The position numbers and the translations under genes are program-made. From positions 1-7,626 of the IMG/VR virus record IMGVR_UViG_2541047761_000008: DNA of 7,626 bases. The stretch is one strand, 5' to 3'. How positions within the stretch are numbered: the first letter of the stretch is position 1; each line of letters begins with the position of its first letter. The notes under the pieces are model-generated. The model searched no databases, was not told where the DNA came from, and saw nothing but the letters and a program-made list of their open reading frames with translations. This DNA is from a virus. Lineage: Duplodnaviria; Heunggongvirae; Uroviricota; Caudoviricetes. Of the stretch, positions 1 to 7,626 are shown piece by piece.

Positions 1-513
1 CACATCGAAAAATGTTTCGACCTGCCTGTCGGATGGCTTGATCAAGAACACCAGACAACAAACATCACAAAAAAACCTGATGTTTCAATTACTAACAAAC
101 AAATAACGTTAGTCCCTGTCATATCATGGGTACAGGCCGGAGCATGGAAAGAAGTTGGCTATTCTGAGGTTGATTTGAGCACAGCAGAAACTTATCCCTG
201 CCCTGTACCCTGTGGCGAAATGACTTATATCTTGCGGGTGATTGGTGATTCAATGATTGATGAGTACCGCCCGGGAGACATGATTTTTGTAGATCCTGAA
301 GTCCCTGCCTGCCACGGTGACGACGTTATTGCATTGATGCACGATACAGGCGAAACCACCTTCAAGCGATTGATAGAAGATGGAACACAGCGTTATCTCA
401 AAGCATTAAACCCAAACTGGCCTGAGCCTTACATTAAGATCAACGGTAATTGCTCTATAATTGGTACAGTAATTTTCTCAGGAAAACCAAGAAGATACAA
501 AATAAAGGCCTAA
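1..513 (+). CDS. CI/LexA-family phage repressor, C-terminal S24 peptidase (autocleavage) domain; 5'-partial, N-terminal HTH lies upstream of the window
   Basis: The reading frame is open from nt 1 to the stop at 511-513, so the track ORF start at 175 (a TTG) is an artefact. Translation carries the linker motif VPVISWVQAGAW (Ala-Gly cleavage site at nt 136-141), catalytic Ser in ILRVIGDSM (nt 250-252), Lys in TFKRLIEDG (nt 364-366) and LNPNWP, closely resembling lambda CI. Confidence 0.85.
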   Translation, partial: HIEKCFDLPVGWLDQEHQTTNITKKPDVSITNKQITLVPVISWVQAGAWKEVGYSEVDLSTAETYPCPVPCGEMTYILRVIGDSMIDEYRPGDMIFVDPEVPACHGDDVIALMHDTGETTFKRLIEDGTQRYLKALNPNWPEPYIKINGNCSIIGTVIFSGKPRRYKIKA

Positions 514-524
514 TCAATATTTAT

Positions 525-547
525 AACCTGCTTCGGCAGGTTTTTTT
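525..547 (+). terminator. Rho-independent terminator downstream of the repressor gene
   Basis: Stem AACCTGC (525-531) / GCAGGTT (536-542) with a TTCG tetraloop, running into a T7 tract (541-547), 12 nt after the repressor stop codon. Confidence 0.6.
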
Positions 548-551
548 ATAC

Positions 552-580
552 TTGACAATGTACCCTTGAGATACATAATG
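552..580 (+). promoter_or_regulatory. Sigma70-type promoter (pL-like) driving the downstream early operon
   Basis: Perfect -35 TTGACA (552-557), 16-bp spacer, -10 CATAAT (574-579); the upstream T-tract could act as a UP-like element. Predicted start around 586-588. Confidence 0.5.
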
Positions 581-585
581 TATCT
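569..585. promoter_or_regulatory. 17-bp palindromic operator-like site overlapping the -10 element
   Basis: AGATACAT-A-ATGTATCT: perfect 8-1-8 inverted repeat (569-585) covering the -10 hexamer. A possible extra half-site ATGTAC lies at 558-563. Size and placement resemble lambdoid OL operators. Confidence 0.45.
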
Positions 586-1199
586 AAAAGAAACATGCCA
601 CAGGCAAGATTAAACAAAATTTGGTTGTAACACGGCGTATGGCACATGCGTCGTTAGCGGTCTGGGGACGTTAAAGGGGACAATCCACTCCTTGCTCGGG
701 CAAACAAACCAGATAGCCGGAATGTGCAAGTCAATGAGGATGCTGATAAGACGCCTAACCAGCGTGGCGATTCGGTTTGACGCCTGGGAAGAGACCAGGG
801 TGCAACGATGAGGGCATTTATGGAACCGCGACAAAGTGTGGTGCCGTAACTGGCTAAGTGCTCTCAGCGTTGTGGTGAATGCGCAGGCTGATGCGCGAAA
901 GACATTGCAGCTATTGCGGAAAAGAGCTGTTCGGCGGGGCAATTAAACGCCCGTGAGAGTCTGAAATAACCGCAAGCCGGAGATCAGCACCGGTCACCAC
1001 AACAGCCACTGCTTTGGCGGTACCAGTTTGTACACTTGCTTCCGGCTGGTACCGCTCTTTTTACAAAACAGAGAAGAGCATCACCGGACGACGGGCTCAT
1101 AACCCAATCCATCCGGGCGGCTGTCACCGCAGGTGTTCTTCTCTGTTTTGTGGAGAAACCAACCGACCTTGCAGGGTCGGTATGATGAGGAGCAGCAAA

Positions 1200-1562
1200 A
1201 TGGCTAGCGTACGCAGTACTGATGTGCAGGTATTTATCGTAGAACTGGACGGCGGCGTATTTGAAACCAAACTCGGCGCAGTTCTCAGTGAAGTCGCTTC
1301 CGGTGTGATGAACACGAAAAACAAAGGTAAAGTCTCGGTCAATCTGGACATCGAACCGTTTGATGAGAACCGTGTGAAAATCAAACACAAACTCTCATAT
1401 GTTCGCCCGACTAACCGCGGGAAAATTTCCGAAGAAGACACCACCGAAACGCCGATGTATGTCAATCGAGGTGGTCGCCTGACTATTCTGCAGGAAGACC
1501 AGGGACAATTACTGACTCTTGCCGGTGAACCTGACGGAAAACTCCGCGCAGCAGGTCATTAA
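1200..1562 (+). CDS. yfdP: YfdP-like prophage protein (120 aa), function unknown
   Basis: ATG at 1200 is preceded by a strong SD GAGGAG (1187-1192, 7-nt spacing). The track ORF from 1014 adds a Cys/Arg-rich, non-protein-like N-terminal extension, so it is rejected. Length 120 aa and position directly upstream of yfdQ match the KplE1/CPS-53 yfdP gene as recalled. Confidence 0.7.
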   Translation: MASVRSTDVQVFIVELDGGVFETKLGAVLSEVASGVMNTKNKGKVSVNLDIEPFDENRVKIKHKLSYVRPTNRGKISEEDTTETPMYVNRGGRLTILQEDQGQLLTLAGEPDGKLRAAGH

Positions 1563-1627
1563 TATCGTTCTTAATTAACTGATTATTTATCTCATCACTG
1601 AATATCTTAATATAGTGAGGACTTATT

Positions 1628-2452
1628 ATGTCTCAGAACTTAGACGCAACCGCAATTAATCAAATCCATGCCCTTATTTCTGCTCAGGGTGTTAATGAAA
1701 TTATCAGTAAGATTGGTGCCGACGCAGTGGCATTACCTGAAAATTTCCGCATTCATGATCTGGAAAAATTTAATTTAAATCGCTTCCGTTTCCGTGGTGC
1801 GCTTTCCACTGCCAACATCGATGACTTTACCCGTTATTCTAAAGATCTTGCAGATGAAGGCACCCGCTGCTTTATCGATGCCGATAATATGCGTGCCGTC
1901 AGTGTGCTTAACCTGGGTACTATTGGTGAACCAGGTCACGCAGATAACACCGCCACACTCAAACTGAAAAAGACAGCACCGTTCTCTGCTCTGTTGTCTG
2001 TTAACGGCGAGCGTAACTCCCAGAAGTCACTGGCAGAATGGATTGAAGACTGGGCCGACTATCTTGTGGGCTTTGATGCTAATGGTGACGCTATTAAGGC
2101 AACAAAAGCGGCTGCGGCGGTCCGTAAAATCACGATTGAAGCAAACCAGACCGCTGATTTTGAAGATAATGACTTCAGCGGCAAACGCTCCCTGATGGAG
2201 TCTGTCGAAGCGAAGACCAAAGATATTATGCCAGTGGCATTTGAATTTAAATGCGTTCCGTTTGAAGGCCTGAAAGAACGTCCGTTTAAATTACGCCTCA
2301 GCATTATCACTGGCGATCGTCCTGTACTGGTTCTGCGCATTATTCAGCTGGAAGCAGTGCAGGAAGAAATGGCTAACGAATTTCGTGATCTGCTTGTTGA
2401 GAAATTCAAGGACAGCAAAGTAGAAACCTTTATTGGTACTTTTACCGCCTGA
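1628..2452 (+). CDS. yfdQ: YfdQ-like protein (DUF2303 family), 274 aa
   Basis: ATG at 1628 with SD GAGG (1617-1620). N-terminus [20 protein letters not shown] and the 274-aa length match recalled E. coli YfdQ; gene order yfdP-yfdQ-yfdR-yfdS is conserved. Confidence 0.88.
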
Positions 2453-2464
2453 TTTCATTACTGC

Positions 2465-2486
2465 AAATGCCCCTGCGGGGGCATTT
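2465..2486 (+). terminator. Stem-loop between yfdQ and yfdR; weak candidate intrinsic terminator or attenuator
   Basis: AAATGCCCC (2465-2473) / TGCG loop / GGGGCATTT (2478-2486), a 9-bp stem. The U-rich stretch is short (AUUUAU), so termination would be partial at best. Confidence 0.3.
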
Positions 2487-2579
2487 ATGGAAACGTAATT
2501 GACTCAATAATCGCCGGATGGTGAGGGCTTTCTTTTACCAGAATTCAGCGCGGTGCAGCGCATATACGTGGAGAACAAA

Positions 2580-3116
2580 ATGTCATTTATTAAAACTTTT
2601 TCCGGGAAGCATTTTTATTATGACAGGATAAATAAAGACGACATCGTGATTAACGATATCGCGGTTTCCCTTTCAAATATCTGTCGCTTTGCAGGACATC
2701 TTTCACACTTCTACAGTGTCGCCCAGCATGCGGTGCTTTGCAGCCAGCTGGTGCCGCAGGAATTTGCTTTTGAAGCGTTAATGCATGATGCAACAGAAGC
2801 GTATTGCCAGGATATTCCCGCTCCACTGAAACGCCTTCTTCCTGACTATAAACGGATGGAAGAAAAAATAGACGCCGTAATCCGTGAGAAATACGGGTTA
2901 CCCCCGGTTATGAGCACGCCTGTGAAATATGCCGATCTCATCATGCTGGCAACCGAACGCCGCGATCTCGGGCTTGATGATGGCTCTTTCTGGCCAGTAC
3001 TGGAAGGTATCCCGGCAACAGAAATGTTCAAAGTTATTCCACTGGCTCCGAGCCATGCCTACGGGATGTTTATGGAACGTTTTAACGAGTTATCGGAGTT
3101 ACGCAAATGCGCATGA
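2580..3116 (+). CDS. yfdR: HD-domain 5'-deoxynucleotidase YfdR (178 aa)
   Basis: ATG at 2580 with SD GGAG (2570-2573) gives 178 aa starting MSFIKTFSGKHFYYD, matching recalled K-12 YfdR; the track start at 2553 is an upstream GTG. HD-domain motif H...HD is present (SVAQHAV ... ALMHDATEAY). Confidence 0.9.
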   Translation: MSFIKTFSGKHFYYDRINKDDIVINDIAVSLSNICRFAGHLSHFYSVAQHAVLCSQLVPQEFAFEALMHDATEAYCQDIPAPLKRLLPDYKRMEEKIDAVIREKYGLPPVMSTPVKYADLIMLATERRDLGLDDGSFWPVLEGIPATEMFKVIPLAPSHAYGMFMERFNELSELRKCA

Positions 3117-3469
3117 ATGTTTTCGAAATGGAAGGGTTTCTTCGCGGGAAATGTGTACCACGAGATCTGAAAGTGAATGAAACAAATGCTGAGTACCTAG
3201 TACGTAAATTCGATGCGCTTGAAGCTAAATGTGCGGCACTGGAAAACAAAATAATACCAGTGTCAGCTGAACTGCCGCCAGCAAATGAAAGTGTTCTGTT
3301 ATTTGATGCTAACGGAGAAGGCTGGCTAATTGGCTGGCGTTCTCTCTGGTACACCTGGGGACAAAAAGAAACCGGAGAATGGCTGTGGACATTTCAGGTC
3401 GGGGACCTTGAAAACGTCAATATCACTCACTGGGCAGTAATGCCGAAAGCACCGAAGAATAAAAAATGA
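3107..3469 (+). CDS. yfdS: YfdS-like protein with C-terminal DUF551-type domain (120 aa)
   Basis: Start overlaps the yfdR stop by 10 nt. The 120-aa length matches recalled YfdS. C-terminus GWLIGWRS...ITHWAVMPKAP is typical of DUF551. Confidence 0.85.
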   Translation: MRMNVFEMEGFLRGKCVPRDLKVNETNAEYLVRKFDALEAKCAALENKIIPVSAELPPANESVLLFDANGEGWLIGWRSLWYTWGQKETGEWLWTFQVGDLENVNITHWAVMPKAPKNKK

Positions 3470-3669
3470 GCGTGATAAAAACTCATACAGGAATTGTTAT
3501 CACCCGAGACGGTCCGCAGGTAAAAAAACTGCACCAGACAAAGCGGATGTGGGTCGTCGGAAAAAACGAGTTTTACCACAAAGAAACCGGACGCCGCCAC
3601 TTTGCAGAAAATACTCGCCGCCGACTGCTGATCGATACCATCAAGCCTATCGAGGTGAAGCATGTTTAA
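3466..3669 (+). CDS. Hypothetical small protein (67 aa), basic
   Basis: ATG at 3466 overlaps the yfdS stop (ATGA coupling). Same strand and coupled to flanking genes. No family recognised. Confidence 0.55.
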   Translation: MSVIKTHTGIVITRDGPQVKKLHQTKRMWVVGKNEFYHKETGRRHFAENTRRRLLIDTIKPIEVKHV

Positions 3670-3901
3670 ACAGAACGAAAAATCTATCGCTCAAATTGCT
3701 GAGTATATCCCGCGTGCGTGCCGGGGTATGCAGTTGCAGGAAGCCAAAGCACGCCTGGAGAAAAAAATTGCGCTCTATATCGATGACGGCTGTGATGCTG
3801 CCGTTCTTAACGCGGCGTTCGCGCCAGCTCTTAACAGTCATACGCGAAAGTCTTTTTTTTCGTGCATCGCAGCGCAGATCCGTAAAGGAGGCAACCAGTG
3901 A
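3662..3901 (+). CDS. Hypothetical small protein (79 aa)
   Basis: ATG at 3662 with SD GAGGTG 6 nt upstream, overlapping the end of the previous ORF by 8 nt. Contains a T8 homopolymer (3853-3860) in frame. No family recognised. Confidence 0.6.
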   Translation: MFKQNEKSIAQIAEYIPRACRGMQLQEAKARLEKKIALYIDDGCDAAVLNAAFAPALNSHTRKSFFSCIAAQIRKGGNQ

Positions 3902-4497
3902 GCAACATTAACTATCAGGTACTGCGTGAAAAGGCAGAGAAAGCAACTAAAGGAAGCTACATCGTAGGGCATACATCTGTTAACCAACACGGCAATTTAA
4001 CAGGAGTTTTTGTTTGTCAAAAATGGAAAGGAGAACCCGGTGGCGTAATTGCAGAATGTCACGTTAACTGCCTGGTTGAAACAGATGCTCAGGCTTATGC
4101 AAACGCTGAATTCATAGCAGAGGCTAACCCGGCTACCGTGCTGGCACTGCTGGATGAACAGGAAAGAAACCAGCAATACATCAAACGCCGCGACCAGGAG
4201 AACGAGGATATTGCGCTAACGGTAGGGAAGCTGCGCGTTGAGCTTGAGGAGACAAAATCAAAACTCAACGAGCAGCGCGAGTATTACGAGGGAGTTATCT
4301 CTGATGGGTGCAAGCGTATTGCTGAACTGGAAGCGCGGGAAGTTCAATTACCGACTCGCTACGACCTTCGATATGGACACCCCATAAATGCAGATGAGCG
4401 ACAAGTCATGATACCTAAAGAAAATGGCAGTTGGCTTTACCTGATTGACCTAGAACACGCATTACGCGTCGCTGACATTCGCATCAAAGGAGAGTGA
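3898..4497 (+). CDS. Ead/Ea22-like family protein (199 aa)
   Basis: GTG start at 3898 with a perfect SD AGGAGG (3886-3891), overlapping the previous stop (GTGA). Motifs MSNINYQVLREKAEKATKG and ANPATVLALLDE resemble recalled Ead/Ea22-like prophage proteins. The central segment is heptad/charge-rich (LRVELEETKSKLNEQREYYE), a likely coiled coil. Confidence 0.85.
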   Translation: MSNINYQVLREKAEKATKGSYIVGHTSVNQHGNLTGVFVCQKWKGEPGGVIAECHVNCLVETDAQAYANAEFIAEANPATVLALLDEQERNQQYIKRRDQENEDIALTVGKLRVELEETKSKLNEQREYYEGVISDGCKRIAELEAREVQLPTRYDLRYGHPINADERQVMIPKENGSWLYLIDLEHALRVADIRIKGE

Positions 4498-4498
4498 T

Positions 4499-4763
4499 AT
4501 GGCAACTTTGACAAAAAAAGAACAAGCATGGTTGAGCGAATTACAGGACGTTCTTGATCGCTGCCCATCACCGAAAAAAAATTGGTTTTTACACCATTGG
4601 CGATAAAAGCATTTACCTGTATGACCTGCGCCGCATGGATGAAATCATGGAGGCTCTTGATAATCGTTCGTCAATGGATTGGTGTGTTGCTGTTCATGAT
4701 ATGAATGCCGGATTTGATGAAAAGATTTTATTCCCCTCATCAGTTGAAAGTACAGCAGGATAA
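4499..4763 (+). CDS. Hypothetical small protein, apparently frameshifted in an A8 tract (two frames, 4499-4606 and 4554-4763; about 87 aa if A7)
   Basis: ATG at 4499 with SD AAGGAGAG and a 1-nt gap after the Ead stop opens a frame that stops at 4604-4606. The downstream frame to 4763 has no ATG before the tract, only a TTG at 4554. The two frames join across A8 (4574-4581) if one A is removed. Confidence 0.5.
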
Positions 4764-4773
4764 GGACTAACAC

Positions 4774-5535
4774 ATGACCACTATTACCAAAGAGCGACTG
4801 CTGACAATCAGGCAGTGGCGCGAAACATACGGACCTGGTAGCAACGTTGTACTGCCAGCAGAAGAAGCGGAAGAACTGGCACGAATTGCTCTGGCATCGC
4901 TGGAAGCAGAGCCGATAGGTTTCCGTTGCAGGCGCAATGATAACCTTGGTGATTGGAGTTACGTATATCATCGAGAGCCAGATGATTTTGAGCGCAAACA
5001 TTTAGTGATAGAGGGCATTTACGCCGCCCCTCCAGCACCGGTAGTGCCTGAAGAAGCAACTCCGGAAAACGTAGAAATGCTCTCTGGCTATGTTTCAACG
5101 TACAAATTAACCGATAGCGAGCGCGATATTGCTGCCGAAATATGGAACGCCTGCCGCGCCGCCATGCTTCAGTCCGGAAACTTTCGGGAAAACAAGAATT
5201 CGTCAACCAATAATTTTCGGGAAATCGCGGAAACGTCAACCAACTATCCGGCAATTCCTAGTGAGGTGTTGTCCGCAATCCTGAAGGTTGCCAGGATTCG
5301 TGCCGATTTCGATGATTTTGACGGTGACAGGCGAGGTATCGGTGATTGTCTGGATGAGGCTGAGCAAGAGCTTATCGTTACCATTAACAAATATGCCAGT
5401 CAGTTGGCAGCAGAACCTATAGCGCCTAATGACGTTCGAGAGCAGACAGCCATTCCACAAGTTCCGGTAACTCCGGATGGTTGGATAAGCTGTAGTGAGC
5501 GAATGCCGGACGACAGGCAGGAGGTGAATCAATGA
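4774..5535 (+). CDS. Hypothetical prophage protein (253 aa) ending in the start of a DUF551-like motif; internal 11-residue tandem repeat
   Basis: ATG at 4774 with an AAGGA-type SD. The C-terminal WISCSERMPDDRQEV parallels YfdS residues IPVSAELPPANESVLLF but stops where the DUF551 body should continue. Contains the tandem repeat NFRENKNSSTN / NFREIAETSTN. Confidence 0.8.
   Translation: MTTITKERLLTIRQWRETYGPGSNVVLPAEEAEELARIALASLEAEPIGFRCRRNDNLGDWSYVYHREPDDFERKHLVIEGIYAAPPAPVVPEEATPENVEMLSGYVSTYKLTDSERDIAAEIWNACRAAMLQSGNFRENKNSSTNNFREIAETSTNYPAIPSEVLSAILKVARIRADFDDFDGDRRGIGDCLDEAEQELIVTINKYASQLAAEPIAPNDVREQTAIPQVPVTPDGWISCSERMPDDRQEVNQ
5179..5243 (+). repeat. Imperfect 33-bp tandem direct repeat (2 copies), in frame within the 253-aa CDS
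   Basis: Copy 1 AACTTTCGGGAAAACAAGAATTCGTCAACCAA (5179-5210) and copy 2 TAATTTTCGGGAAATCGCGGAAACGTCAACCAA (5211-5243), about 75% identical. They encode the protein-level repeat NFRE...STN twice. Confidence 0.5.
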
Positions 5536-5615
5536 GCTGGCCTGATGCAATCGTAACTCTGGGGGTGGTCTTCGCAGCAGCGTTTGTTGTGTTCTCGATT
5601 TGTCGATGGGGATAA
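5532..5615 (+). CDS. Candidate 27-aa hydrophobic (single-TM-like) small peptide
   Basis: ATG at 5532 overlaps the previous stop (ATGA) and sits 8 nt after a perfect SD AGGAGG (5518-5523). Translation MSWPDAIVTLGVVFAAAFVVFSICRWG has an 18-residue hydrophobic core. Below the track length cutoff; not verified by homology. Confidence 0.4.
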   Translation: MSWPDAIVTLGVVFAAAFVVFSICRWG

Positions 5616-5619
5616 CCAC

Positions 5620-5862
5620 ATGTTCGCTTTGATTCAACGCGGTCAGATATACACGGACAGAGCTGGATACCCCGTGGTGATTACTCGCATCACTGAGCAC
5701 TCAGTGTTCTTTCGACGGATGGACGGACGATCCGGGCGGGTACGCATTGGTGAGTTAAACTGCCTGTTCGAACATATTGACCACCAGGAGTACCGCAAAA
5801 TTCTCGCGGACACTGAGCAGGAAAAGCACCTGAAAAAATTACGAGCCATAAAAAGGAAGTAA
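5620..5862 (+). CDS. DUF4222-like small prophage protein (80 aa from ATG 5620; the track uses a TTG at 5584)
   Basis: ATG at 5620 with a GGGGA SD-like motif (5607-5611). Sequence MFALIQRGQIYTDRAGYPVVITRITEHSVFFRRMDGRSGRVRIGELNCLFEHI resembles recalled DUF4222 proteins found near prophage xis/int. Confidence 0.7.
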   Translation: MFALIQRGQIYTDRAGYPVVITRITEHSVFFRRMDGRSGRVRIGELNCLFEHIDHQEYRKILADTEQEKHLKKLRAIKRK

Positions 5863-5865
5863 AGA

Positions 5866-6012
5866 ATGAATAAAGCATTTGAACGATGGGTCCACCAGCG
5901 TTACGGCAATCGCTATGACCTGACGCGAGATGTTGACGGCTTCTACTGTCGTGAAGTTGTGAAGCGAATGTTTGAAGTGTGGTGCCACTGCCGTGGGCTG
6001 AGTGTTGTGTGA
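5866..6012 (+). CDS. Candidate 48-aa Cys/His-containing small protein
   Basis: ATG at 5866 with SD AAGGAAG (5853-5859, 6-nt spacing), starting 3 nt after the upstream stop and ending 8 nt before xis. Translation MNKAFERWVHQRYGNRYDLTRDVDGFYCREVVKRMFEVWCHCRGLSVV. Absent from the track because it is under 60 aa. Confidence 0.45.
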   Translation: MNKAFERWVHQRYGNRYDLTRDVDGFYCREVVKRMFEVWCHCRGLSVV

Positions 6013-6020
6013 GGTAATAC

Positions 6021-6257
6021 ATGGGCAATGTGATTCAACTGGCTCCCAATGAATGGGTTTGTGAAAGCGTTCTTATCGCAATTACCGGGCTCAAACCAGG
6101 CACAATTCTTCGGGCCCGGAAAGAATGCTGGATGGTTGGAAGAGAGTATATTCACGTATCACCAGACGGTAATCCAAAGCCTTCCAGTGAATGTATGTAT
6201 AACAGAAAAGCAATAGATGCCTGGGTCGCCTCAATGAAAAACAAACAACCCAGGTGA
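6021..6257 (+). CDS. xis: Excisionase (Xis-like small DNA-binding protein, 78 aa)
   Basis: ATG at 6021 with SD GAGGT (6011-6015). Small basic protein directly upstream of and co-directional with the integrase; recalled similarity to putative-excisionase family proteins (LIAITGLKPGTILRARKECW). Confidence 0.72.
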   Translation: MGNVIQLAPNEWVCESVLIAITGLKPGTILRARKECWMVGREYIHVSPDGNPKPSSECMYNRKAIDAWVASMKNKQPR

Positions 6258-6312
6258 TTTAATATCATGAAATATGTAAGCTCGTATCGCTCTTGGGCGT
6301 CTGGAGGTATCG

Positions 6313-7626
6313 ATGGATAAAGTCAAATATCCAACAGGCGTCGAAAACCACGGCGGCACATTACGCATCTGGTTTAATTTTAAAGGTAAACGTGTCAGGG
6401 AAAATCTTGGTGTCCCTGACACTGCCAAGAACAGGAAGATCGCCGGGGAACTGCGGACATCAGTATGTTTTGCCATCCGCACAGGAAGCTTTGATTATGC
6501 TGCACAGTTCCCTGACTCCCCCAACCTTCAGGCTTTTGGGGTAAGTAAAAAAGAAATTACGGTGAAGGAACTTGAAGAAAAGTGGCTGGATCTGAAACGA
6601 ATGGAAATCTCTGCAAATGCATTCAATCGCTATGAATCCGTTGCAAGAACGATGGTTCCGAAAATTGGAGGCAGCAGACTGGTGTCATCGGTAACTAAAG
6701 AGGAATTGCTGTATATCAGGAAAGATTTGCTGACCGGGTATCAGCATTCAACGAAAAACAAAGCAGCAGCAAAAGGACGGAGCGTCGTTACTGTAAATTA
6801 TTACATGACGACAATCGCTGGAATGTTTCAGTTTGCTGCAGATCACGGTTACTTAGAAGCAAATCCCTTCCAGGGAATTAAGCCTCTTAAAAGAGCCAGG
6901 GCAGAGCCAGATCCGCTAACTCGTGACGAATTTATTCGCCTGATAGATGCTTGCCGACATCAGCAGACGAAAAACCTGTGGTCATTGGCTGTGTACACAG
7001 GAATGCGTCACGGTGAACTGGTCTCCCTGGCCTGGGAAGATATCGATCTGAAAGCAGGAACTATTACTATCAGGCGCAATTATACGAAACTCGGTGAGTT
7101 CACTCTACCTAAAACTGAAGCAAGTACAAACAGGGTTGTGCATCTTATCCAGCCCGCTATCAGTGTCCTGAAAAATCAGGCTGAAATGACAAGACTGGGT
7201 AAGCAGCACCACATCAAGGTTCAACTACGTGAATATGGGCGTTCAGTGAATCATGAATGTACTTTCGTATTTAACCCCCAGGAGGTTAGAAAAAGCAAAC
7301 AGGTCGGTTTTATCTACAAGGTAGATTCTATTGGCGACTCATGGGAAACAGCCATTAAGCGTGCGGGCATCAGGCACCGGAAAGCATACCAGTCACGACA
7401 CACTTATGCGTGCTGGTCATTATCTGCCGGAGCAAACCCAAGCTTCATTGCCAGCCAGATGGGCCATGCAAGTGCCCAGATGGTGTTCAATGTATACGGA
7501 GCATGGATGACTGACAGTAATGCAGAACAGATCGCAATGCTGAATCAGAAGCTGGCAGATTATGTCCCAATGATGTCCCATGGTCACCAAAGTGACACAA
7601 GAGACTTATTAAAATCAGTAGGTTAG
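6313..7626 (+). CDS. int: Site-specific tyrosine recombinase / phage integrase with N-terminal arm-binding domain (DUF3596 type), 437 aa
   Basis: ATG at 6313 with SD GGAGGT (6303-6308). N-terminus YPTGVENHGGTLRIWFNFKGKRVRENLG resembles e14/Sf6-type integrases. Catalytic region has GMRHGELVSLAWEDIDL, HRKAYQSRHTYACW and MGHASAQMVFNVYGAW (R, H-x-x-R and Tyr nucleophile). Stop TAG at 7624-7626. Confidence 0.95.
   Translation: MDKVKYPTGVENHGGTLRIWFNFKGKRVRENLGVPDTAKNRKIAGELRTSVCFAIRTGSFDYAAQFPDSPNLQAFGVSKKEITVKELEEKWLDLKRMEISANAFNRYESVARTMVPKIGGSRLVSSVTKEELLYIRKDLLTGYQHSTKNKAAAKGRSVVTVNYYMTTIAGMFQFAADHGYLEANPFQGIKPLKRARAEPDPLTRDEFIRLIDACRHQQTKNLWSLAVYTGMRHGELVSLAWEDIDLKAGTITIRRNYTKLGEFTLPKTEASTNRVVHLIQPAISVLKNQAEMTRLGKQHHIKVQLREYGRSVNHECTFVFNPQEVRKSKQVGFIYKVDSIGDSWETAIKRAGIRHRKAYQSRHTYACWSLSAGANPSFIASQMGHASAQMVFNVYGAWMTDSNAEQIAMLNQKLADYVPMMSHGHQSDTRDLLKSVG

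Follow-up and report, generated by a model that had tools for sequence, protein, structure and literature searches.

Structured RNA modules in the non-coding leader between the early-left promoter and yfdP of a lambdoid prophage

The stretch of DNA analysed here (the window) comprises the whole of positions 1 to 7,626 (7,626 nucleotides, nt) of IMG/VR virus record IMGVR_UViG_2541047761_000008 (Caudoviricetes) and spans the early-left arm of an SfV/mEp460/cdtI/Ayreon-type lambdoid prophage. A leader of about 600 nt (586-1199) separates the early promoter of this arm from yfdP, the first protein gene of the early-left operon, and a preliminary description had considered a cis-acting RNA, a small RNA (sRNA) or a deletion scar as explanations for it. 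Here, we report that the leader lacks conserved coding capacity and, rather than being a scar, is a patchwork of structured-RNA modules that are mobile independently of one another; one of these modules is a tRNA-shaped scaffold carrying a hypervariable insert. We regard it as rather probable that the early-left unit opens with a non-coding RNA operon, the leader, in which the terminated RNA would give an STnc100-like sRNA and read-through would give yfdP.

Layout of the early-left arm and its leader

The open reading frame (ORF) at 175-513 encodes the C-terminus of a cI-like repressor (Peptidase_S24 match). The intrinsic terminator that closes this gene is followed immediately by a sigma-70 promoter, and the position of the -10 hexamer places the probable transcription start near 586. 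The same 20-nt palindrome that is found at this promoter occurs in phage Ayreon (L001) twice in the cI-cro intergenic region and twice at the homologous promoter; the early promoter is thus under repressor control, and its earlier designation as pL-like is justified. Beyond the leader, the gene order is yfdP, yfdQ (DUF2303), more small genes, an excisionase-like gene and the integrase gene. The G+C content is 0.52-0.545 over 601-1200 compared with 0.34-0.48 in the flanks, and the GC skew is positive.

A BLAST comparison with phages and Escherichia coli genomes splits the leader into pieces (modules A, B and C, hairpins Px and H, and terminator T), each of which has different relatives. These pieces and the adjoining features are listed below (bp, base pairs).

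525-548, + strand: intrinsic terminator closing the repressor gene (7-bp stem, 4-nt loop, T-run)
552-579, + strand: sigma-70 promoter TTGACA-16-CATAAT, the pL analogue (11 of 12 consensus matches)
558-596, no strand: two repressor-operator palindromes ATGTAYC-N6-GAWACAT, the first over the promoter and the second immediately beyond it
633-799, + strand: module A, a pseudoknotted RNA (H1 633-653; H2 661-664 with 710-713; invariant block 712-730; H4 751-765; H5 783-799; loop pairings 642-645 with 724-727, and H4 loop 757-760 with 774-777)
803-872, + strand: Px, a long hairpin with an internal loop and a variable tip (803-818 with 857-872)
872-1000, + strand: module B, a tRNA-shaped scaffold RNA (closing stem P1 872-877 with 995-1000, extendable by 869-871 with 1001-1003; AAU 878-880; 5-bp hairpins P2 881-885 with 892-896 and P3 976-980 with 990-994; loop-loop helix 887-891, GCUGA, with 984-988, UCAGC; hypervariable 79-nt insert 897-975)
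1001-1015, + strand: single-stranded linker between B and T
1016-1062, + strand: T, an intrinsic terminator (stem 1016-1028 with 1044-1056, 15-nt loop, U-tract 1058-1062)
1058-1160, + strand: module C (helix of ~25 bp, 1058-1082 with 1132-1158, and a three-way junction at the tip)
1162-1181, + strand: H, a GC-rich hairpin 6 nt ahead of the ribosome-binding site
1187-1192, + strand: ribosome-binding site GAGGAG of yfdP
1200-1562, + strand: yfdP (phrog_204)

The region 586-1199 contains no conserved coding sequence, as judged from ORFs, Pfam, PHROG and frame tests, and the preliminary description of it as a GC-rich, apparently non-coding leader was borne out. On the + strand, the ORFs within it are of 39 amino acids (aa; 692-811), 36 aa (836-946) and 49 aa (1036-1185), and the - strand has one of 110 aa at 610-942. 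These short ORFs start at TTG or GTG without a ribosome-binding site, none of them has a Pfam match, and the sole PHROG match among them is that of the 49-aa ORF, which spans the T and C hairpins, to phrog_33599 (unknown function). The yfdP frame stays open for 81 codons upstream of the gene in the window (ORF 1014..1562, starting at TTG without a Shine-Dalgarno sequence) but is stopped 5 codons before the start in Citrobacter phage phiNP and 1 codon before it in Escherichia phage LLS, so the extension is not conserved. In addition, length differences between homologues are not multiples of three (103 versus 107 nt for C, and 12 to ~200 nt for the B inserts), and the substitutions covary at paired sites. 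The RefSeq/PGAP annotation of E. coli genomes carrying the sequence has no entry across the leader, whereas some phage records list hypothetical proteins in the region. No N-like gene was found between the promoter and yfdP, either in the ORF list or in the Pfam search.

The modular nature of the leader is evident from a survey of 80 close yfdP relatives. T, C and H are present in every one of them, and what lies upstream varies: A-Px-B1 in 22, A-Px-B2 in 33 (B2 being a different structured element in the same slot), B1 alone in six, and neither A nor B in 18. The same slot can hold B1, B2 or a true tRNA, or be empty. Four distant phages (ST64B, Klebsiella Kp4866-6, phiNP and LLS) have 630-990 nt of non-coding sequence between repressor and yfdP, assembled from the same kinds of parts as the leader in the window. 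All modules are conserved, covary and recur in unrelated phages, which speaks against the proposed deletion scar. The sequence strings quoted in the preliminary description all lie where it placed them; its general view of non-coding elements acting at the RNA level holds, whereas the scar and the put-like and boxA-like elements that it also considered are not supported, and it had missed modules A and B (633-1000) altogether.

Structure, conservation and spread of the modules

Module B consists of the conserved blocks GUGGUGAAUGCGCAGGCUGAUGCGC and GCCGGAGAUCAGCACCGG(C/U)CACCAC on either side of the insert, and in at least 120 viral contigs the inserts are mutually unrelated in sequence. Its fold was derived from 90 distinct scaffolds, with 12 that differ in loop length excluded: 98.3% of cells are paired, double changes occur in 14 of 21 pairs, none of 500 shuffles is as good, and pairing falls to 25-56% in slid controls. 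Of the cells in the loop-loop helix, 99.3% are paired, and copies outside the set of 90 add the loop covariants ACUGA:UCAGU and GCUAA:UUAGC. P3 abuts the 3′ strand of stem P1. The G-U pairs are compatible with the + strand alone, and a DNA-level hairpin, of the integron attC type or another, was rejected because of this strand specificity. A hammerhead, twister or hepatitis delta virus (HDV)-like ribozyme, a Y RNA and a transfer-messenger RNA (tmRNA) were likewise rejected, on topology or absence from the Rfam results. The insert found in the window also occurs in P1-like plasmids and in 845 of 5426 complete E. coli genomes, in all of which it is unannotated; its identity falls below 95% in a single one of the 890 matching records, and no host look-alike of it was detected.

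When the 3′ block was looked for in one genome per species, 75 sites came up, 55 of which have the 5′ block upstream. These sites belong to Gamma-, Beta- and Alphaproteobacteria as well as to single assemblies assigned to Coriobacteriia, Phycisphaerales, Syntrophomonadaceae, Acidobacteriota, Synechococcus, Verrucomicrobiota and Magnetococcales; since several of these assemblies are metagenome bins, the taxonomic spread should be read with caution. The inner core of B is almost invariant, while the outer three pairs of stem P1 vary freely with compensation. Clustering of the ORFs downstream of 114 elements gave no conserved protein partner. Of 129 distinct copies of B, 54 have a terminator-like site in the 110 nt that follow, compared with 16 of 129 for the upstream flank, and a promoter stands directly ahead of A or B in three loci (L213, L059 and L115). 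One B subfamily directly precedes a ribosome-binding site and start codon, and the HK620 element is part of the late leader, with qut on one side and the late terminator on the other. The insert of one subfamily (L080, L090 and L101) has 85-87.5% identity over 40 nt to E. coli 16S rRNA, in a stretch that we take to be the helix 11 region, and may thus be a mimic of a host RNA displayed on the scaffold. In Stutzerimonas stutzeri (L225), B (2681-2873) is followed after 6 nt by a DUF3800-VII RNA (2879-2963) and preceded by an int-alpA RNA (2008-2072); B can therefore belong to arrays of prophage RNA motifs. Literature searches with the core sequence strings yielded no papers, and keyword searches on tRNA-like phage RNAs yielded nothing that describes the B scaffold.

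Module A was folded from 28 diverse copies. Its five nested helices and two loop-to-downstream pairings are paired in 96.6% of cells, both sides have changed in 14 pairs, none of 500 shuffles is as good, and slid controls give 26-49%. One pseudoknot pairing has changed from CACC:GGUG to AACC:GGUU in the lineage of the window, whereas the other, GCAC:GUGC, is uninformative because it is invariant. The module holds long invariant single-stranded stretches, such as GGUAGCCGGAAUGUGCAAG. It is common across viral contigs, and in phage P1 it is located between tRNA-Ile and ban, in the 5′ region of ban; outside enteric bacteria, it was not found upstream of B.

Between A and B, hairpin Px ends with its 3′ strand at the first base of B or, in other phages, of a true tRNA. 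Its outer half covaries (for example GAUGAGAG:CUCUCAGC versus UCAAAGAG:CUCUUUUUGA), and in distant bacteria B is preceded by long hairpins that are like Px but unrelated in sequence. GUUG at 869-872 may pair either with CAAC at 803-806, which closes Px, or with CAAC at 1000-1003, which extends the B stem; these pairings are mutually exclusive and could constitute a folding or processing switch. In Kp4866-6 (L381 500-590) and phiNP (L382 500-590), true T-loop hairpins (GGUUCGAUUCC) that ARAGORN does not call as tRNAs lie inside the Px-like hairpin, and they may be tRNA fragments or further tRNA-like elements.

Hairpin T has 13 pairs (-21.2 kcal/mol) followed by CUUUUU, as is characteristic of intrinsic terminators, and was missed by a consensus terminator scan because the loop limit of that scan was 8 nt. 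The equivalent hairpins of ST64B, Kp4866-6, phiNP and LLS have other sequences, with energies of -20 to -31 kcal/mol, and in each case CUUUUUACAC comes next. Two features of the preliminary description are resolved by this hairpin. The imperfect direct repeats noted at 1007-1026 and 1033-1054 exist as sequences, but their relevance as direct repeats does not hold, as they are mainly the inverted-repeat arms 1016-1028 and 1044-1056. The supposed boxA, CGCTCTTTTTACAA (1053-1066), is the 3′ arm of T together with the U-tract; where a nut site would have boxA CGCUCUUA and an adjacent boxB hairpin, the sequence in relatives is CGCCCUUUUU, CGACCUUUUU or GGCACCUUUUUU, and each of these changes in step with the 5′ arm. 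In related phages, the linker position holds a tail that resembles RprA, UUGCUGUGUGWAGUCUUGG. In LLS (L383 770-906), and also in ST64B, Kp4866-6 and phiNP, the linker and terminator UUGCUGUGUGUAGUCUUUGCCC... resemble the 3′ part of the host sRNA RprA (40.8 bits, E 0.04), a kind of tail that is typical of sRNAs. With this linker position and T behind it, B makes up a complete sRNA-like unit of ~190 nt (872-1062).

The segment 1005-1215 folds with z = -7.6 relative to shuffles. The 9-nt complementarity (1069-1077 with 1137-1145) recognised earlier proves to be the core of the long helix of module C, whose tip carries the invariant sequence CGACGGGCUCAUWACCCAAUCCAYCCGG; among 16 variants, 8 of 37 consensus pairs show double changes. 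In its predicted fold, C offers about two turns of nearly perfect double-stranded RNA, as expected of a site for ribonuclease (RNase) III. Such sites are known in the lambda N leader and in T7 early messenger RNA (mRNA). C resembles them in being a near-perfect helix just before the first early-operon gene, but they are simple sites without its three-way tip and invariant unpaired bases. The hairpin earlier reported at 1163-1180 is real and corresponds to H, whose position is kept in four related phages with a different sequence (GGCGG...CCGCC). Since C and H always accompany yfdP, a role in cis is their natural reading, and the earlier suggestion of such a role is plausible for these two.

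Relationship of module B to tRNA and known phage RNAs

Several lines of evidence connect B with tRNA genes. In phiV10-like phages (L004), the A-Px pair is followed by a genuine tRNA-Arg(UCU), which begins at the same base past ...GCGUU as B. B-type elements lie just after tRNA-Asn and tRNA-Thr in phage P1, B heads a Ser-Thr-Arg-Met tRNA array (L084), and a tRNA follows B after 12-21 nt in phiEt88 and L013. B thus adjoins tRNA arrays on the same strand, including those of virulent phages, and in bacterial genomes B-tRNA adjacency is occasional only. Besides occupying the position of a tRNA gene, B has the cloverleaf topology: stem P1 (6-9 bp) is like an acceptor stem and abuts the 5-bp T-like arm P3, a 3-nt connector leads to the D-like P2, the elbow is formed by a loop-loop contact, and the insert takes the place of the anticodon arm. 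It differs from tRNA in that the elbow is made of Watson-Crick pairs (five) and that a canonical D-loop, T-loop, anticodon arm and encoded CCA are missing. ARAGORN reports no tRNA or tmRNA gene in the window, and the Rfam tRNA model has no match. In phage P1 (L005 463-1032; AF234172 69472-70041), the annotated putative genes plp and upl run antisense to B-type elements and may be spurious as protein annotations.

The Rfam scan of the whole window (E up to 1) gave no match to any family, and that of 840-1080 (E up to 10) yielded nothing beyond noise and a partial match to rydB. The closest architectural parallel is STnc100 (RF02076), whose Rfam consensus, caUGGUGAAU-P2-variable-CCGGGAGGCACCCGG-CACCAug, follows the same plan as B. 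Both have a GGUG/CACC closing stem, AAU, P2, a variable middle, and a P3 (CCGGG...CCCGG in STnc100) that abuts the stem, and in both the scaffold is followed by a linker and an intrinsic terminator (1001-1015 and T in the window). STnc100 and PasD (PasD1 and PasD2) are prophage sRNAs of Salmonella and E. coli that share a structure and have different seeds (bioRxiv 10.64898/2026.05.13.724894). The STnc100 sRNA family has been detected in vesicles by reverse transcription-PCR (PMC8550237; bioRxiv 10.64898/2026.05.13.724894; PMC12370729), and PasD is a northern-validated, Hfq-dependent prophage sRNA also recovered by ligation and sequencing of interacting RNAs (RIL-seq; PMC8550237). The preprint on Pas sRNAs covers those of the late region (bioRxiv 10.64898/2026.05.13.724894). 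Like B, the two sRNAs are intergenic in lambdoid prophages, and their variants differ mainly in the middle or 'seed' region. True STnc100 loci, which were retrieved through a published primer sequence, consist of promoter, scaffold with varied inserts, linker and terminator, and end in GCCCCUCUCCGGAGGGGCUUU.

There are also clear differences. P2, P3 and both loops of B have other sequences, the P3 loop being of 9 nt and the loop-loop helix of 5 bp; STnc100 has its own promoter, whereas B is preceded by A and Px and lies 285 nt into a longer transcript; and the B core occurs far outside Enterobacteria, whereas STnc100 and PasD are known from enterobacterial prophages only. The ST64B element in the same slot (B3) scores 35.1 bits with the STnc100 model (gathering threshold 47). 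The element in the window shares the architecture and the linker and terminator but gave no match with that model, and we class it as a divergent variant of the STnc100 kind, not as a member of the family. In the yfdQ-yfdR intergenic region of the window (2453-2580), there is a terminator-like hairpin, GCCCCUGCGGGGGC, and the equivalent region of Ayreon (L001 4425-4605) matches STnc100 weakly (23 bits, E 0.18), so this may be the place of another scaffold-type element, in degenerate form.

A more limited likeness is seen with RydB (RF00118), a 68-nt sRNA of E. coli K-12. Model positions 30-47 (GCCGGAGAUAAGCGCCGG) match P3 of B and its loop, and the K-12 gene (L386 6714-6781, - strand) has a CCCC/GGGG closing stem that abuts this hairpin. 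However, the score of 13.7 bits lies well below the gathering score of 50, a clear P2 is lacking, and the gene is chromosomal and not in a prophage. The shared hairpin and the closing stem give E. coli rydB the look of a decayed, minimal B within the core genome.

Structured non-coding RNAs are known from phages, such as the stable RNAs C and D of phage T4. A and B also resemble a set of structured non-coding RNAs of phages and prophages that often lie beside tRNA genes, are in some cases followed by terminators, are not tied to 5′ untranslated regions (UTRs) and have no known function (PMC5737381). A and B match none of these Rfam families and are much smaller than GOLLD or ROOL.

A proposed non-coding RNA operon and its alternatives

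The proposed course of events is as follows. When repression is lifted, RNA polymerase would start near 586 and transcribe A, Px and B, and most polymerases would stop at T (~1062), giving an RNA of ~475 nt. Within it, B, the linker and T (872-1062, ~190 nt) would form an sRNA of the STnc100/PasD type, which may bind Hfq as these do; the sRNA option of the preliminary description fits this architecture. Since B begins where tRNA-Arg begins behind the same Px, we infer a 5′ cut of the RNase P type, so that the 5′ end of B would be freed by tRNA-type processing. In the scaffold, the closing stem would stack on P3 and P2 on the insert, with the two loops clamped together, and the variable insert that it carries would be kept stable and correctly trimmed. 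Polymerases that read through T would continue into C, H and yfdP; the helix of C would be a likely RNase III site that parts the sRNA portion from the mRNA, and H may protect or tune the 5′ end of yfdP.

Several observations weigh against this proposal. The fold energies of B alone (z = -0.9) and A alone (z = -1.8) are unremarkable relative to shuffles, and a nearby terminator is detectable in just 42% of B copies. If T is efficient, the early-left genes would need an antitermination mechanism, and none was found. The STnc100 model does not find B in the window (840-1080, E up to 10), and a covariance model of the insert-free B scaffold splits its matches into halves and detects no STnc100 loci. 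Because neither model detects the other family, homology of B and STnc100 rests on architecture, short shared motifs and the ST64B intermediate. Recognition by RNase P is a conjecture, as B lacks D- and T-loops and CCA and is rejected by ARAGORN and Rfam. Finally, stems that are near-invariant across phyla are not explained by a pure stability scaffold, which suggests a sequence-specific partner.

A bolder view, which we hold only tentatively, is that B represents an undescribed, ultraconserved tRNA-shaped carrier with a core of ~50 nt, distantly related to STnc100, employed by phages and prophages across many bacterial phyla, matured by the tRNA-processing machinery of the host and presenting payloads of 12 to ~200 nt, at least one of which would mimic a helix of 16S rRNA, as decoys, guides or regulators during infection. 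In this view, A is a second new class, a pseudoknotted RNA placed ahead of tRNAs, B elements or genes, with conservation of ribozyme or riboswitch grade. Describing the scaffold family and A as new classes of RNA may well prove warranted.

The whole leader could instead be a purely cis-regulatory 5′ UTR of yfdP (a riboswitch, thermosensor or RNase site) without a trans-acting product. The constant company of T, C and H with yfdP, the position of H ahead of the ribosome-binding site and the exceptional stability of C would all suit it, as would the location of A in the 5′ region of ban in phage P1 and the B subfamily that directly precedes a ribosome-binding site and start codon. However, A and B elsewhere precede unrelated genes or tRNAs, or stand alone with terminators, and have no conserved downstream protein; T separates them from C, H and yfdP; and the exchange of B1, B2 and tRNA in one slot is unlike a dedicated yfdP sensor. 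A cis-acting leader fits C and H, not A and B, and we judge it unlikely as an account of the region.

An explanation for the missing N function would be offered by a cis-acting processive antiterminator in the style of HK022 put, in which nascent A, B or C lets polymerase pass T and later terminators. The position is right, after a repressor-controlled early promoter and before both T and a terminator-like hairpin after yfdQ (seen in Ayreon). As in HK022, a non-coding RNA lies between the early promoter and the first terminators of a lambdoid phage without an N gene; all relatives examined keep 630-990 nt of structured RNA in this place, and the near-invariant stems would suit binding to a universally conserved protein such as RNA polymerase. 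Nevertheless, when putL and putR of HK022 were extracted and folded, only chance 7-9-mers were found in common, and there is no likeness to their two stem-loops or their core GAACGGC...GGAUGA...CAAUG. C cannot act on T, since it lies downstream of it. Furthermore, A and B are optional or swappable ahead of T-C-H-yfdP, and the 18 relatives with T-C-H only, the copies of B that often have their own terminator within tens of bases, and those inside tRNA arrays of virulent phages are incompatible with an obligatory cis role. The put-like antiterminator proposed earlier is therefore improbable.

It is very unlikely that the leader is evolutionary debris of decayed tRNA genes and recombination joints without present function. 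The mosaic of modules with different relatives, the true T-arm fragments (GGUUCGAUUCC) that ARAGORN leaves uncalled beside related elements, and the resemblance of rydB to a decayed B would agree with such an origin. On the other hand, compensatory changes keep every helix, the B core is near-invariant across phyla while its outer stem covaries freely, the insert of the window is nearly identical in its many records (see above), and the related STnc100 and PasD scaffolds are expressed, Hfq-bound RNAs (PMC8550237). Least tenable is a kil/cIII-like peptide encoded by the short + strand ORFs or the 110-aa - strand ORF, an idea for which the hypothetical proteins in some phage records and the phrog_33599 match speak, but which the absence of Pfam and other PHROG matches, the TTG/GTG starts without ribosome-binding sites, the length differences, the covariation of substitutions at paired sites and the empty PGAP annotation make extremely improbable.

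What had appeared as an unexplained gap in this widespread group of E. coli, Shigella and Salmonella prophages is thus replaced by a defined anatomy of the RNA that would be made first on induction, in which a terminator, rather than a nut or put site, follows the early promoter. The Hfq-binding sRNAs STnc100 and PasD become linked to a far broader set of RNAs with constant scaffold and variable insert, which is absent from Rfam and, in many phages and bacteria, lacks annotation, and A adds a further pseudoknotted structured RNA. An engineered 'tRNA scaffold' for expressing recombinant RNA was reportedly introduced by Ponchon and Dardel in 2007. If B is indeed a natural tRNA-like carrier, it would be the natural counterpart of this biotechnological tool and would open a testable route to new phage-host RNA interactions.

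Two observations concern other parts of these phages. In the window, a run of eight A (~4575-4582) joins two overlapping + strand ORFs in different frames, 4499-4606 (35 aa) and 4554-4763 (69 aa), and the pair (4499-4763) has the appearance of a gene broken by a frameshift, an error in sequencing or a slippery site. In Ayreon, Rfam identifies a C4 antisense RNA (80.7 bits) and isrK (58.9 bits) on the - strand at 409-597 of L001, outside the region that corresponds to the window and among the immunity-region genes right of cro, so that an RNA immunity module of the P1 type is likewise present in this phage group.

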